Part shown: positions 7,978 through 20,159 of the stretch, in pieces | How the letters are laid out: every line of letters starts with the position of its first letter | Numbering within the stretch: the first letter of the stretch is position 1 | Notes under the pieces: model-generated | The model's database searches: none | Seen by the model: only the letters and a program-made list of their open reading frames with translations | Told to the model about the DNA's origin: nothing | From: a phage | Assembly: GCA_009015555.1 (NCBI GenBank) | Contig: GCA_009015555.1_3613.1 | Length of the DNA stretch: 64,000 nucleotides | Direction: 5' to 3' (one strand) | Position numbers and translations under genes: made by a program

Positions 7978-8010
7978 TAAAAAGGCACCCTAACGGGTGC
8001 CTTTCTTTTT
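7978..8010. terminator. bidirectional rho-independent terminator between convergent blocks
   Basis: AAAAA-GGCACCC-TAAC-GGGTGCC-TTTCTTTTT: A-tract on one side and T-tract on the other. Confidence 0.8.
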
Positions 8011-9254: not shown

Positions 9255-9339
9255 TCACTTCTCCTTCGAGGATAAACAAGGCCCCAGAATTGAGGCCAGG
9301 ACAACAGGTTACCACATTTACTCAGAATTGCAAGGTGCC

Positions 9340-9525
9340 TTACCAGACACCGAACCAAACGCCGACCCCGTGGATAACACCGACCGGGGCGAAGATAGCA
9401 CCCGCAATCAGGAACAGCCACGACGCAGTTTTGATACACACCACAACGTGGGTGATCCATGCGACGATGGATGCGATTACGATTGCCAGCCAACCCAGAC
9501 CTAAACCTGCCAGTAACTTGTTCAT
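9340..9525 (-). CDS. small membrane protein (two TM)
   Basis: 61-aa ORF, almost entirely hydrophobic. Confidence 0.4.
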   Translation of the reverse strand: MNKLLAGLGLGWLAIVIASIVAWITHVVVCIKTASWLFLIAGAIFAPVGVIHGVGVWFGVW

Positions 9526-9537
9526 TTCCTCTCCTTT

Positions 9538-9915
9538 TTACAAATAGACGCGCTGCACCTCTTTGTCTGCTTGATCAAACATCAAGTTTGCAGCATTAAT
9601 GTCCTTAATCATCTCCTCCGTCATCTGATCCGGGCGCAATGCCCGCAGTGAACGTTTGAAGAGGACTTTCGGATCTTCAGTTACATCTCCCGACACATCG
9701 AACATCTTGATGATCATCTTCACCGGAACCTCACGAGAAATCTGTCCGCCGACGTTGATGGCGTATGTAGCCCCTACTTCAACTTGACGGTGGTCCAGTT
9801 CGTACATCAGATTCAGGTTAACGTATTTGTATTCGTCGCAGCGAGTAATGTTCTTCTGTGCCTGAACACAAACCCAGCCCGGCTCAACAAAAGTGTTATC
9901 GAAAATGCTCATCAT
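9538..9915 (-). CDS. hypothetical protein
   Basis: Track ORF in operon orientation; no motif recognised. Confidence 0.5.
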   Translation of the reverse strand: MMSIFDNTFVEPGWVCVQAQKNITRCDEYKYVNLNLMYELDHRQVEVGATYAINVGGQISREVPVKMIIKMFDVSGDVTEDPKVLFKRSLRALRPDQMTEEMIKDINAANLMFDQADKEVQRVYL

Positions 9916-9967
9916 GTCTTCCTCATCAGTTAATGTTGTGACCAGTATACCTACATTCCCGTAGAAG

Positions 9968-10621
9968 TCAACTTACTTTTGAAATTACCAGTTTTTGAAC
10001 GTAGCCCTGCAACAGGGCGTAAGTTACACCACCCACATAACTACCGCCGACAGAGAGTCTCTCTCCGGCACCGAACCAGTTGGGAACAGAAAAGTTCTGA
10101 ACTTCCCCGCTCACCATATTTCTCACACGGATCTGCCGAGAGTCCGGGTAAGTTTCGATCCGCAGATTAAAAACTTGGCCCTGATTACCATTGATCGAGC
10201 AACGAACATAATTTCCGCTGTTGTCTGTTGGGAACAATTGGTGCCCTCCAACCCCAACCATGCCATAATGCGCCAGTCCGGCGACGATCCTTGTGACGTA
10301 ATCGCCAGAACACCACACCATCTGGGTTGCAGAAGGACTAAGGCTTTGGAAAACAACCTCAATCACCATAGGATCTGTGGATAGATCCACTGAATACTGA
10401 GTTTGGAAATACCCTTGGCCTTGGGCAGGTATGAACTGCATGACCCTTCCAATCCCTGCAACATCGACTATCCTTGGGCCTGTGCCGACCAAAGAGAAGG
10501 TGTGGTTTTCAGACCAGTCCTTCAAAACAGTCTCGCCGAGAGATTGCCGTGTGGCATCCACGTAGAGAATGGCATCCTCTTTGCGAGATGACTTCCCTAT
10601 AATCATTATCTCGTTCATCAA
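9968..10621 (-). CDS. hypothetical protein
   Basis: 217-aa ORF; 4-nt overlap with the downstream gene. Confidence 0.55.
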   Translation of the reverse strand: MMNEIMIIGKSSRKEDAILYVDATRQSLGETVLKDWSENHTFSLVGTGPRIVDVAGIGRVMQFIPAQGQGYFQTQYSVDLSTDPMVIEVVFQSLSPSATQMVWCSGDYVTRIVAGLAHYGMVGVGGHQLFPTDNSGNYVRCSINGNQGQVFNLRIETYPDSRQIRVRNMVSGEVQNFSVPNWFGAGERLSVGGSYVGGVTYALLQGYVQKLVISKVS

Positions 10622-10989
10622 TTTCTCCGAGGTTTTAAAACACCTGATTTTGAAAGAGGGATCTCATCGGCATCTCTGCCTTTCTCTCCATCTTTCCCGT
10701 CCTTCCCGGCCTTTCCTGGTTTGCCCTCCGGGCCTGCCGGACCCGCTGGACCTGGCACATAAACATACTGCGGTTCAGTAAACGCTGCAATAAACAGCAG
10801 TATTGCCCAAGCAACACCATTCACCCACAGTGCAGGCCACATTGAAAAGAATACCGACAGCGCCAGAATCAACATCGTATTCCGATGTTCTCTCTTGCGG
10901 GCCACGAAGTAAGGGACCAGCCAGAACAGTACAAATACCCAGGCCGAGCCTGAGAACAACGACCACATCACATCGACAAACTCTGTCAT
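10618..10989 (-). CDS. membrane protein with collagen-like Gly-X-Y repeat
   Basis: Three hydrophobic helices, then GPAGPAGPEGKPGKAGKDGKDGEKG (8 G-X-Y triplets). Confidence 0.5.
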   Translation of the reverse strand: MTEFVDVMWSLFSGSAWVFVLFWLVPYFVARKREHRNTMLILALSVFFSMWPALWVNGVAWAILLFIAAFTEPQYVYVPGPAGPAGPEGKPGKAGKDGKDGEKGRDADEIPLSKSGVLKPRRN

Positions 10990-11282
10990 TTGATCAGCCC
11001 CTCTTGGATTTTAATTTGGAGGATCTCCGCATCGATCGAGTAGGTATTGCTGGTTCGGGTGTAATCTGCATCCCGGTATCGACACATCACACCTTTGGCC
11101 TCGCCGTCTCGCTGGACCACCCAGCTTGTGTCATAATTGGGTTGGCTCTTACACACCTTGTGTAATGCCACTACCTCGGTCGGCATCAGCGATTTCTTCG
11201 ACTCATAATGATCTGGTTTCCCGTCATCGAAAGGATTGCATCCCGAAAGCAGGAGCGCCGTTAATAAAATCAGTTTCTTCAC
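10986..11282 (-). CDS. lipoprotein
   Basis: GTG start giving KKLILLTALLLSGC (signal peptide plus lipobox). Track ORF begins 26 codons further upstream at a TTG. Confidence 0.5.
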   Translation of the reverse strand: MKKLILLTALLLSGCNPFDDGKPDHYESKKSLMPTEVVALHKVCKSQPNYDTSWVVQRDGEAKGVMCRYRDADYTRTSNTYSIDAEILQIKIQEGLIK

Positions 11283-11431
11283 ATCCACCCCCAGTATTTC
11301 GAAAGTTCTGTGGAGATCATGATCCCCACGACATAAGTCATTGAGAAAACCACGGTCCAATACATGAACCGGGTCCCAGCCATCGCTACCATAATGAACA
11401 ATATAACAAAAGTTTCAGGCGCGATCAACAT
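11279..11431 (-). CDS. small hydrophobic protein (50 aa)
   Basis: Hand-translated MLIAPETFVILFIMVAMAGTRFMYWTVVFSMTYVVGIMISTELSKYWGWM; stop overlaps the lipoprotein GTG (GTGA). Confidence 0.35.
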   Translation of the reverse strand: MLIAPETFVILFIMVAMAGTRFMYWTVVFSMTYVVGIMISTELSKYWGWM

Positions 11432-11844
11432 TTTGTTGCTCCCTTGCGACGTTTATCTTCATCTTCAATAGCCTCGTCTTCTGCCCGGGCCAAGATCTGA
11501 TAGATTGTCTCTGGATTGTCGAGGAACTCTGTATACTTCTTGATCCTCACTGCCAACTTGCCACGGATCTTACGCTCCTGCATCTGCTGGTTCTGCATGA
11601 AACCACGCTGGTACAGGATGAAATAGTATACCTGCTTTGCTCGATTACGATCGCAACCCAGTGCATGGGCGAAGTCATTGAAGCAGTCGCTGTCGTGTTT
11701 GACCATGAAAATGTCCCAGAACACCTCACGCGCTTTTGCAAGCTCCTCGGGAGTCACTTTTGGGAACTCCGGGTCGCCATAGCGTGGATGCTTTTTGCCA
11801 GCCCACTCGGGTTTTGCCGGATAAACTTTTCTTGTATTGCTCAT
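11425..11844 (-). CDS. hypothetical protein
   Basis: GAGGAG RBS before ATG at 11844; track start is an upstream TTG. Confidence 0.55.
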   Translation of the reverse strand: MSNTRKVYPAKPEWAGKKHPRYGDPEFPKVTPEELAKAREVFWDIFMVKHDSDCFNDFAHALGCDRNRAKQVYYFILYQRGFMQNQQMQERKIRGKLAVRIKKYTEFLDNPETIYQILARAEDEAIEDEDKRRKGATKC

Positions 11845-11910
11845 TTCATCACTCCTCAAGGTAAAACGTTATTCCACAGGATGGGGGCCGAAGCCCCCGA
11901 TATTACTTAC

Positions 11911-12603
11911 TTAATCACAGGACGAGGAACTTGAACCGCTGTCATACGAACTGGAGTCGTAAGAACTGCTGGAAGAAGAACCATAGCTCGAACTGCTGTA
12001 GCTGTCGTCAGAAGACGAGTAGCTTGAACTGTACGTTGAGGTCGCAGAGGAACTGCGGCACTCTTCCACCGGGGCAGGCTGCGCCGCCGGGGTGTCGTCA
12101 CTCAGGATCGCTCCGGCTGCATAGCCGTACATCGCCGCGTTTACGGGATCAATACCGTGAGAAACGACATGACCACCTGTGCTGTGCGGGGTATCGTCAA
12201 GACGTCGGCTTGGGGCCGGAGAACCGGACATCTTAGCCTGCTTGATGAACTGACGCTTCGCCTTCGGCGGTAGAGTCTTACCCTTCGCATACGCTGGCAG
12301 TTCCACACCTTTAAGCTGCTCGTTCAGAGGCTTTGGTGGGGTCTTTTCCACCGGGGCCTCACGAACAGTCTGGCGAGTTTCTACTGTCACCACGCGCTTG
12401 GTGTTTTCTGCTACATTTGCACTTACCAAGACTTGGTTCTTTTCCAGAGGCTCGTCCAGCGGACGGGTTTCAGCCTTGGTAAAGCGTACCTGACTTACGG
12501 TCTGGGCCTGAGATTGTTTGGCGATATACTCGTCAACCTTTGCGTCTTCGATCTTCGCCGGGGCGAACAGGGCTTTGATCCACGCCACAAATTTCTTGAT
12601 CAT
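11911..12603 (-). CDS. hypothetical protein with Ser/Tyr-rich low-complexity C-terminus
   Basis: 230-aa ORF; C-terminal SSYSSSDDSYSSSSYGSSSSSSYDSSSY. Confidence 0.5.
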   Translation of the reverse strand: MIKKFVAWIKALFAPAKIEDAKVDEYIAKQSQAQTVSQVRFTKAETRPLDEPLEKNQVLVSANVAENTKRVVTVETRQTVREAPVEKTPPKPLNEQLKGVELPAYAKGKTLPPKAKRQFIKQAKMSGSPAPSRRLDDTPHSTGGHVVSHGIDPVNAAMYGYAAGAILSDDTPAAQPAPVEECRSSSATSTYSSSYSSSDDSYSSSSYGSSSSSSYDSSSYDSGSSSSSCD

Positions 12604-12815
12604 ACTTTCTCTCCTTTCTCGTTGAGAACAGTTAGGTAATTGGTGCCCAGCAAGCCAGCGGAGATCAGATCATCAATACCCGCCTGCCCGGTAAGGCCGT
12701 CTTCGAAACAATCCTTCAGATTGTCGTTGTTGAGCATCCAGTTATTGGCGGCTTCCTCTGAAGTAAACAGAACGCCCTCCTGACCAACATCCCATTCGCA
12801 GAAAATCTCAAACAT
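12600..12815 (-). CDS. hypothetical protein
   Basis: 71-aa acidic ORF; ATGA overlap. Confidence 0.45.
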   Translation of the reverse strand: MFEIFCEWDVGQEGVLFTSEEAANNWMLNNDNLKDCFEDGLTGQAGIDDLISAGLLGTNYLTVLNEKGEKV

Positions 12816-20116: not shown

Positions 20117-20144
20117 ATATTACCAGAATGAATCTGGACGTCAA
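20117..20144 (-). promoter_or_regulatory. sigma70-type promoter (minus strand)
   Basis: Minus strand TTGACG-16-TAATAT followed by GGCCCC. Confidence 0.55.
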
Positions 20145-20159
20145 CACTTTTCTTCAGGT

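Follow-up and report, generated by a model that had tools for sequence, protein, structure and literature searches.

In the 64,000-nucleotide stretch of phage DNA analysed here (contig GCA_009015555.1_3613.1 of assembly GCA_009015555.1, hereafter the window), three adjacent minus-strand open reading frames (ORFs) code for a hydrophobic protein of 50 amino acids (aa), a lipoprotein and a 123-aa membrane protein whose C-terminal tail carries collagen-like G-X-Y triplets, which is the arrangement that an earlier note on this DNA had described. The window is part of a Certrevirus genome (Vequintavirinae, an rV5-like myovirus), and positions 9900-12700 give a 96% match to Cronobacter phage CR3 and further matches to 24 other Certrevirus records. 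On sequence grounds, the membrane part of the 123-aa protein is a divergent domain of the Imm family (PF14373). By analogy with phage T4, the protein may be an inner-membrane Imm-family member of a superinfection-exclusion module, in which the usual short C-terminal tail was swapped for a collagen segment of the kind found in phage fibres, and we hold the chances for and against this reading to be evenly balanced.

Imm of phage T4 is a membrane protein that prevents the injection of DNA by a second phage. When compared with PF14373 (Imm_superinfect), the orthologues from phages CR9 and SSBI34 scored 24.4 bits (E=2.7e-5) and 25.0 bits (E=1.8e-5) over one common region, and the A5-4 orthologue scored 18.8 bits (E=1.5e-3) over that same region, which is also the one matched in the window protein. 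Precomputed Pfam labels list PF14373.12 for homologues P0015, P0022 and P0023, and the orthologues of CR8 and PBES02 are named 'Superinfection immunity protein' in UniRef. A profile made from six Vequintavirinae membrane domains, with their tails removed, was searched against 1.84 billion representative proteins (E<=1e-3) and gave 99 matches; hmmscan assigned to PF14373 89 of the 97 that lay outside the query set. BLASTP of the window protein against T4 Imm, translated from the T4 genome, gave E=7e-4 with the two proteins in register (residues 20-63 in both), and P26, F28, A30, R33, W55 and W61 are common to them. The pattern P-x-x-I-A-x-x-R-x-H-x-N between two hydrophobic helices, together with a Trp in the second helix, is present, and in the window protein the membrane-domain motif reads P26-x3-A30-x2-R33-x-H35-x-N37, plus P52 and W61. 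P26, H35, N37 and P52 are invariant among 28 homologues and A30, R33 and R36 are nearly so, while W61 is invariant in an alignment of 11 sequences. Superinfection exclusion had been suggested in the earlier note with T5 Llp as the point of comparison; the idea gains support from the homology of the membrane domain to T4 Imm, but not from any likeness of the lipoprotein to Llp.

A recent preprint places the N-terminus of T4 Imm in the periplasm, reports that T4 Imm co-purifies with and binds the tape-measure protein gp29, and describes weaker exclusion for the R33A and W50A variants (bioRxiv 10.64898/2026.03.06.709160). The window protein resembles T4 Imm in being a small membrane protein of equal N-terminal length and register, in its P-x3-A-x2-R motif with R33 and its Trp-rich second hydrophobic helix, and in being encoded among the replication genes of a large lytic myovirus. 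However, the 18-residue polar C-terminus of T4 Imm corresponds here to a tail of 52 residues (nine G-X-Y triplets, DADEIPLSKSGV and a basic end), an additional 6-8 residues lengthen the second hydrophobic stretch, which contains the invariant Pro52, and the gene is coupled to those of a lipoprotein and a 50-aa membrane protein. Exclusion is a known function of T4 Imm and a putative one of the Certrevirus protein.

AlphaFold2 modelling of the 123-aa protein, as a monomer and with a 28-sequence alignment, gave two long helices, residues 2-32 and 38-70, with a predicted local distance difference test score (pLDDT) of about 90. The protein had been described as having three transmembrane segments; this topology check gives two long helices instead, although a simple hydrophobicity scan also permits three. 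Lysine and arginine are absent from the N-terminus and from the first 19 residues of the tail, and the loop RKREHRN carries four of them. In addition, some family members have N-terminal signal peptides or an LprI domain, which places the N-terminus outside. The modelled hairpin, the charge distribution and the signal peptides in the family point indirectly to an inner-membrane protein with a periplasmic N-terminus. If the N-terminus is outside, a two-helix hairpin would return the tail to the periplasm, and we consider this location moderately probable; a tail on the cytoplasmic side is a tenable, less favoured arrangement.

Several observations weigh against an exclusion role for the 123-aa protein, and some of these bear on the location of its tail as well. 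The window protein itself matches PF14373 with 12.2 bits (E=0.17), below the gathering score of 27.9, and most PF14373 members are uncharacterised bacterial proteins, therefore membership in the family is no proof of exclusion. The second hydrophobic stretch, which is 34 residues long and has an invariant proline, can be read as two short segments, and this argues against a periplasmic tail, as does the loop described at W50 between the helices of T4 Imm (bioRxiv 10.64898/2026.03.06.709160). The canonical family members P0081 and P0153 have zinc-ribbon-like Cys motifs at their C-termini, which suggest that this end is cytoplasmic. In the AlphaFold2 monomer the tail has pLDDT below 50, and the nine triplets stand only as a candidate triple helix. 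The module had also been placed among early genes, but the nearest upstream minus-strand match to the genus promoter core TGTTGAC-N-TAnnnT lies about 9 kb away (20117-20146) and early expression is not established; a generic sigma-70 scan returned candidates only, the best of them at 13174-13145 on the minus strand.

The collagen-like repeat is indeed present in the tail, but it contains nine uninterrupted triplets in residues 80-106 (GPA GPA GPE GKP GKA GKD GKD GEK GRD) and not the eight previously counted; after them, the protein continues as DADEIPLSKSGVLKPRRN. The match to Pfam Collagen (PF01391) has E=6.6e-5 and 23 bits, below the gathering score of 27.2. This is the sole in-frame run of at least four G-X-Y triplets within an open frame in the window, and a search of the same 64 kb for other collagen tracts or the DADEIPLS motif, as would be expected if the tail mimicked a fibre encoded nearby, found none. 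At the DNA level, tandem-repeat analysis gave a weak signal (9 bp, 2.2 copies), so the tract is not a recent perfect repeat.

Comparison of the tails of 28 close homologues and of some 15 that are more distant showed that triplet number varies from none (P0065) through 3-4 to as many as 13 (P0072), with the frame always kept. In A5-4, P0026, P0063, P0066, P0068 and P0070, one or two copies of a second repeat, SAY..Y...(I/V)PL..(D/E)WL.SL(K/R)G, are found between the G-X-Y runs. The Imm homologue of A5-4, an Escherichia phage, is a 190-aa protein (L012 2401-2973) and has SAYETYL…DWLASLKG and SAYDLYC…EWLESLRG in this position. Both kinds of module make up the collagen-containing Certrevirus virion protein CB7_10 (1100 aa, L015 8031-11330), to which the A5-4 tail aligns with E=8e-8, and the A5-4 tail also matches tail-fibre PHROGs. 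The resemblance to a CB7_10-type collagen-like fibre thus consists of the G-X-Y runs and, in A5-4, P0026, P0066, P0068 and P0070, of the SAY...(D/E)WLxSL(K/R)G repeat between collagen runs; the difference is that here the modules form a short tail on a membrane protein and not a part of a virion fibre.

Conservation in the tail is by far the highest at its end, which follows G-(K/R)-D-A-(D/E)-E-(I/L)-P-L-S-x-x-G-V, with D106, A107, E109, P111, L112, S113, G116 and V117 invariant in the 28 homologues. Nearly all tailed relatives end in a sequence like DADEIPLSKxGV followed by basic residues, and P0065, which has no collagen at all, keeps a VPLSKKG version of this end. The last residues of the protein are basic in every case. 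Because triplet count and fibre repeats vary while the terminal motif stays, the tail has the look of a variable spacer or an element for oligomerisation, made of fibre modules and bearing a conserved terminal peptide, and the probable role of the G-X-Y tract is to trimerise the protein and present this peptide. The same features could also belong to a module for envelope remodelling or host takeover unrelated to exclusion, in which the Imm fold would only anchor a trimeric tail whose peptide is shown to a host target; a guard against lysis from without, control of lysis timing, or a guard against colicins or other phages would be examples. The high conservation of the terminal peptide relative to the rest of the tail and its persistence in the collagen-less P0065 agree with such a role, as do the four small envelope proteins in the block and a spacer length so variable that it argues for display or avidity and against a set geometry, but the residues of the Imm motif, among them the R33 that is functional in T4, are as strongly conserved as the tail and no host target can be named, which leaves this explanation unlikely.

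Sliding identity along the DNA shows a recombination junction. Between 11900 and about 10850, identity is 96-100% to CR3 (with one 100-base bin at 86%) and 70-89% to F1M1E; below about 10800 the figures are 97-100% for F1M1E and 81-86% for CR3. The junction falls inside the Imm-collagen gene, with CR3-like DNA upstream and F1M1E-like DNA downstream, and by this pattern of identity the tail and the downstream 217-aa gene are one exchanged segment. It could be argued that a tract with such a junction in its gene, with 0-13 triplets across homologues and with collagen-less relatives (P0065 and P0069), is functionally neutral low-complexity DNA gained by recombination with fibre genes. We find this quite improbable, since the frame and the G-X-Y periodicity are always kept, the ratio of non-synonymous to synonymous substitution rates (dN/dS) is low over the whole gene, and the same two neighbours, a conserved beta-like stretch and the terminal motif, enclose the tract in every one of dozens of divergent sequences.

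The three genes are all kept in at least 10 sequenced phages, among them CR3, CR8, KaOmega, F1M1E, P7_Pc, PcCB7V, POP15, CR9 and DU_PP_I, and dN/dS (Nei-Gojobori) is between 0.06 and 0.29 for each of them, the 50-aa ORF included, which indicates purifying selection. Given their conservation across phages and the low dN/dS, the three ORFs are real genes, and the small ORF and the lipoprotein, whose translation could have been doubted, also have coupled starts. The stop codon of the 144-aa gene overlaps the start of the 50-aa ORF (ATGTTGA), that of the 50-aa ORF overlaps the GTG start of the lipoprotein gene (GTGA, within ATGTGA), that of the lipoprotein gene overlaps the start of the Imm-collagen gene (ATGA), and that of the Imm-collagen gene overlaps the start of the 217-aa gene (TTGATG); these overlapping junctions therefore make five genes translationally coupled. 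The viable lytic phages phiTE and CB7 lack the whole six-gene block between the 410-aa gene, which resembles that of a single-stranded DNA-binding protein (SSB), and the 144-aa gene, and a search for homologues of the block genes elsewhere in these two genomes found none. Since phiTE and CB7 do without it, the block is accessory and dispensable. Small envelope proteins are the products of four of its six genes.

Outside Certrevirus, the trio also occurs in Septuagintavirus A5-4, where a 62-aa gene is added, and in Salmonella phage SSBI34 and the metagenomic relative L018; the small hydrophobic ORF upstream in SSBI34 has 58 aa and is weakly similar to the 50-aa protein. Other relatives are organised differently. 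The lipoprotein gene directly precedes the Imm gene in L016, a small membrane protein accompanies the Imm-collagen gene in the absence of a lipoprotein in L020, the Imm-collagen gene stands alone in L019, and a tail-less Imm is paired with a 37-aa membrane protein in L021. From the last three cases it follows that the Imm homologue is the core element and the other two proteins are lineage-specific companions. The description of the genes as a single coupled cluster therefore applies within Certrevirus, but not to the farther relatives that have the Imm-collagen gene and no lipoprotein. The 50-aa protein has two predicted membrane helices, and its 28 protein clusters, at 50 aa, all lie within one phage group. 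Its gene is unannotated in the records of CR3, CR8, CR9 and P7_Pc.

The lipoprotein begins with a signal peptide that has a basic n-region, a hydrophobic h-region and a lipobox of the form [LVI][ASTVI][GAS]C (VKKLILLTALLLSGC). Its G14-C15 pair is invariant in 36 homologues, in agreement with the clear lipobox reported before; in the same alignment C44 is invariant and C67 nearly so, which is consistent with a disulfide in an extracytoplasmic protein. Under the +2 rule, Asn after the lipobox cysteine is compatible with sorting to the outer membrane and Asp is a signal for retention in the inner membrane. The window protein has Asn at this position, about half of the homologues have Asp, and Lys, Gly, Leu and Arg also occur; because the residue varies, outer-membrane sorting of the lipoprotein is not certain. 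AlphaFold2 predicted a tether (residues 16-33) followed by a small alpha-beta-beta-beta-alpha domain (pLDDT 84.5), a fold for which comparison with solved structures gave no match. The family consists of 35 clusters of 92-102 aa, except for one entry of 122 aa, has no Pfam domain and is confined to this phage group; its members all come from phage contigs, and those of its carrying contigs that exceed 100 kb are all 134-150 kb long.

The start of the lipoprotein gene deserves mention. The longest mechanical ORF, from TTG at 11360, was rejected in favour of the GTG start that shares bases with the TGA stop of the 50-aa ORF, a junction that is kept in F1M1E and POP15, where the published annotation calls a later ATG. 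With the start at an internal ATG, the public records give proteins of 69 aa in F1M1E (L004 3087-3400) and 87 aa in POP15 (L007 3049-3360), and the signal peptide is lost.

T5 Llp and Cor of phi80 and N15 are exclusion lipoproteins that block FhuA. A similar action here, in which the lipoprotein would reach the outer membrane and block a phage receptor and the Imm-like protein would be secondary, finds some agreement in the small size of this phage lipoprotein, its clear and invariant lipobox, the Asn at +2 in the window and the conserved cysteines, which suggest a folded extracytoplasmic domain. However, no similarity in sequence or fold to Llp, Cor or any solved structure was found. The match to the Cor PHROG covers residues 1-24, that is, the signal peptide alone, and the mature domain is dissimilar; the sorting residue is variable, with the inner-membrane retention signal Asp in about half of the homologues, and several Imm-collagen lineages have no lipoprotein. 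The comparison with T5 Llp made in the earlier note therefore finds support in the signal peptide only, and we consider it improbable that the lipoprotein masks a receptor.

A spanin-like pair had also been proposed for these genes. In such a pair, an inner-membrane protein and an outer-membrane lipoprotein would bridge the periplasm and disrupt the outer membrane at lysis, and it is true that one of two neighbours here is a lipoprotein and the other an inner-membrane protein whose extended tail may be periplasmic, and that weak matches to 'Rz-like spanin' PHROGs (E=2e-4) were obtained. Here again the match is confined to the signal peptide (residues 1-26). As in lambda Rz/Rz1, an inner-membrane protein and a lipoprotein are encoded by neighbouring genes whose stop and start codons overlap, but the gene order is the reverse of that of spanins, and the membrane domain is of the wrong type, with two Imm-type helices and a G-X-Y tail in place of the single transmembrane segment and coiled coil of an inner-membrane spanin. 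Certrevirus phages have a conserved canonical Rz/Rz1 pair of their own beside the terminase (PMC7344957), so that true spanins are encoded elsewhere in the genus. The module here is also dispensable, as phiTE and CB7 lyse their hosts without the block. Together with the absence of the lipoprotein in some relatives, the separate Rz/Rz1 pair, the lytic relatives without the block and the misfit in architecture led us to reject the spanin explanation, to which we give next to no chance.

A conceivable functional analogue of the lipoprotein is T4 Spackle (gp61.3), which acts in T4 exclusion as the periplasmic partner and is likewise a small secreted or envelope protein of a similar phage. However, Spackle has no similarity to the lipoprotein in sequence or fold, the lipoprotein is predicted to be lipid-anchored, and its gene adjoins that of the Imm homologue, whereas sp is not next to imm in T4. 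Docking of the collagen tail onto the lipoprotein was also considered. Because collagen-tailed relatives without a lipoprotein exist, the tail is independent of this protein and the docking idea is weakened.

If the 123-aa protein acts in exclusion as T4 Imm does, it would be produced in the course of infection from the genome's replication-gene side and would insert with its N-terminus in the periplasm. When a second, related virion arrives, the hydrophobic core of the protein could then intercept its tape-measure or ejection proteins at the inner membrane, and the DNA channel would stay shut, as the preprint on T4 describes for Imm and gp29. Trimerisation would come from the G-X-Y tract, which would also keep the DADEIPLSKxGV peptide and basic end at a distance from the membrane. 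The lipoprotein and the 50-aa protein may serve as accessory partners in the envelope of Certrevirus hosts and in a few lineages related to this genus, where they would not be obligatory. A more elaborate and speculative form of this proposal, which we think unlikely to be right in full, is a trimeric exclusion device in which three hairpins lie beneath a periplasmic collagen stalk that presents the peptide to an incoming tail tip or tape-measure protein. Stalk length (0-13 triplets, with or without fibre repeats) and tail modules would be swapped by recombination as phages compete, and an envelope-spanning complex would be completed, in certain lineages, by the lipoprotein together with the 50-aa protein.

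Table 1. Positions in the window of the three genes and of features within them.
Feature	Position	Strand	Basis
50-aa small hydrophobic protein	11279..11431	-	ORF list, conservation, dN/dS; PHROG 22594
98-aa lipoprotein precursor	10986..11282	-	GTG start on TGA of 50-aa ORF
Signal peptide and lipobox of the lipoprotein (VKKLILLTALLLSG, then C)	11238..11282	-	Sequence, alignment
123-aa Imm-family membrane protein with collagen-like tail	10618..10989	-	PHROG 15593
Imm_superinfect-like membrane domain (residues 1-71)	10777..10989	-	Profile search, BLASTP, AlphaFold2
Nine G-X-Y triplets (residues 80-106)	10672..10752	-	Sequence; Pfam Collagen
Conserved C-terminal motif DADEIPLSKSGV and basic end (LKPRRN)	10621..10674	-	28-homologue alignment
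Approximate recombination junction inside the Imm-collagen gene	10800..10850	.	Sliding identity

Among the neighbouring genes, the 217-aa gene that is coupled to the Imm gene (9968-10621, minus strand) matches PHROG 6011 'virion structural protein' (E=1.7e-45) and occurs as two very divergent alleles, one of the window/KaOmega/F1M1E type and the other of the CR8/P7_Pc type; it is absent in CR3, PcCB7V and DU_PP_I. Pfam searches with the lipoprotein and the 50-aa, 217-aa and 144-aa proteins gave no matches. Two further minus-strand genes belong to the block that is missing in phiTE and CB7: a 61-aa ORF at 9340-9525, which belongs to PHROG 7319 and contains two hydrophobic stretches, and a 125-aa gene at 9538-9915, whose homologues in related contigs are labelled Pfam DUF7325. 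On the other side, a 230-aa protein (11911-12603, minus strand) has a long low-complexity C-terminal tail of Ser, Tyr and Asp (…SSSATSTYSSSYSSSDDSYSSSSYGSSSSSSYDSSSYDSGSSSSSCD). A strong terminator-like hairpin with a T-run lies at 7981-8004, between the convergent structural (plus) and replication-side (minus) gene blocks, and a second terminator-like site, at 9280-9302 on the minus strand, lies immediately upstream of the 410-aa SSB-like gene and may be where the transcription unit of the module stops.

Parts of this architecture already carry database labels, such as 'collagen-like protein' (PGAP, KAB3178474.1) and 'Superinfection immunity protein' and 'Lipoprotein' (UniRef). The exact window proteins are deposited at NCBI as Escherichia coli whole-genome shotgun proteins KAB3178474.1 and KAB3178475.1, from a 149,946-bp contig that is a phage genome inside a bacterial assembly. 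The papers on the genus Certrevirus hold no discussion of the three genes, and the papers searched have no description of an Imm core fused to a length-variable tail of collagen and fibre repeats with a conserved terminal peptide, nor of optional lipoprotein and small-membrane-protein partners of such a protein. The advance is therefore the combined architecture and its variation, and not a new kind of system.

The mechanism of T4 Imm has been addressed only lately, in a 2026 preprint that describes binding to the tape-measure protein (bioRxiv 10.64898/2026.03.06.709160). A natural Imm subfamily with a putative trimerisation tail, a strictly conserved peptide at the end of it and envelope partners that are optional offers comparative material on which parts of Imm recognise the incoming phage, and it bears on whether oligomeric state matters and on how the specificity of exclusion evolves between competing lytic phages. 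Vequintavirinae phages are also used in biocontrol cocktails against Cronobacter, Pectobacterium and E. coli, and mutual exclusion among the members of a cocktail would lower its efficacy.

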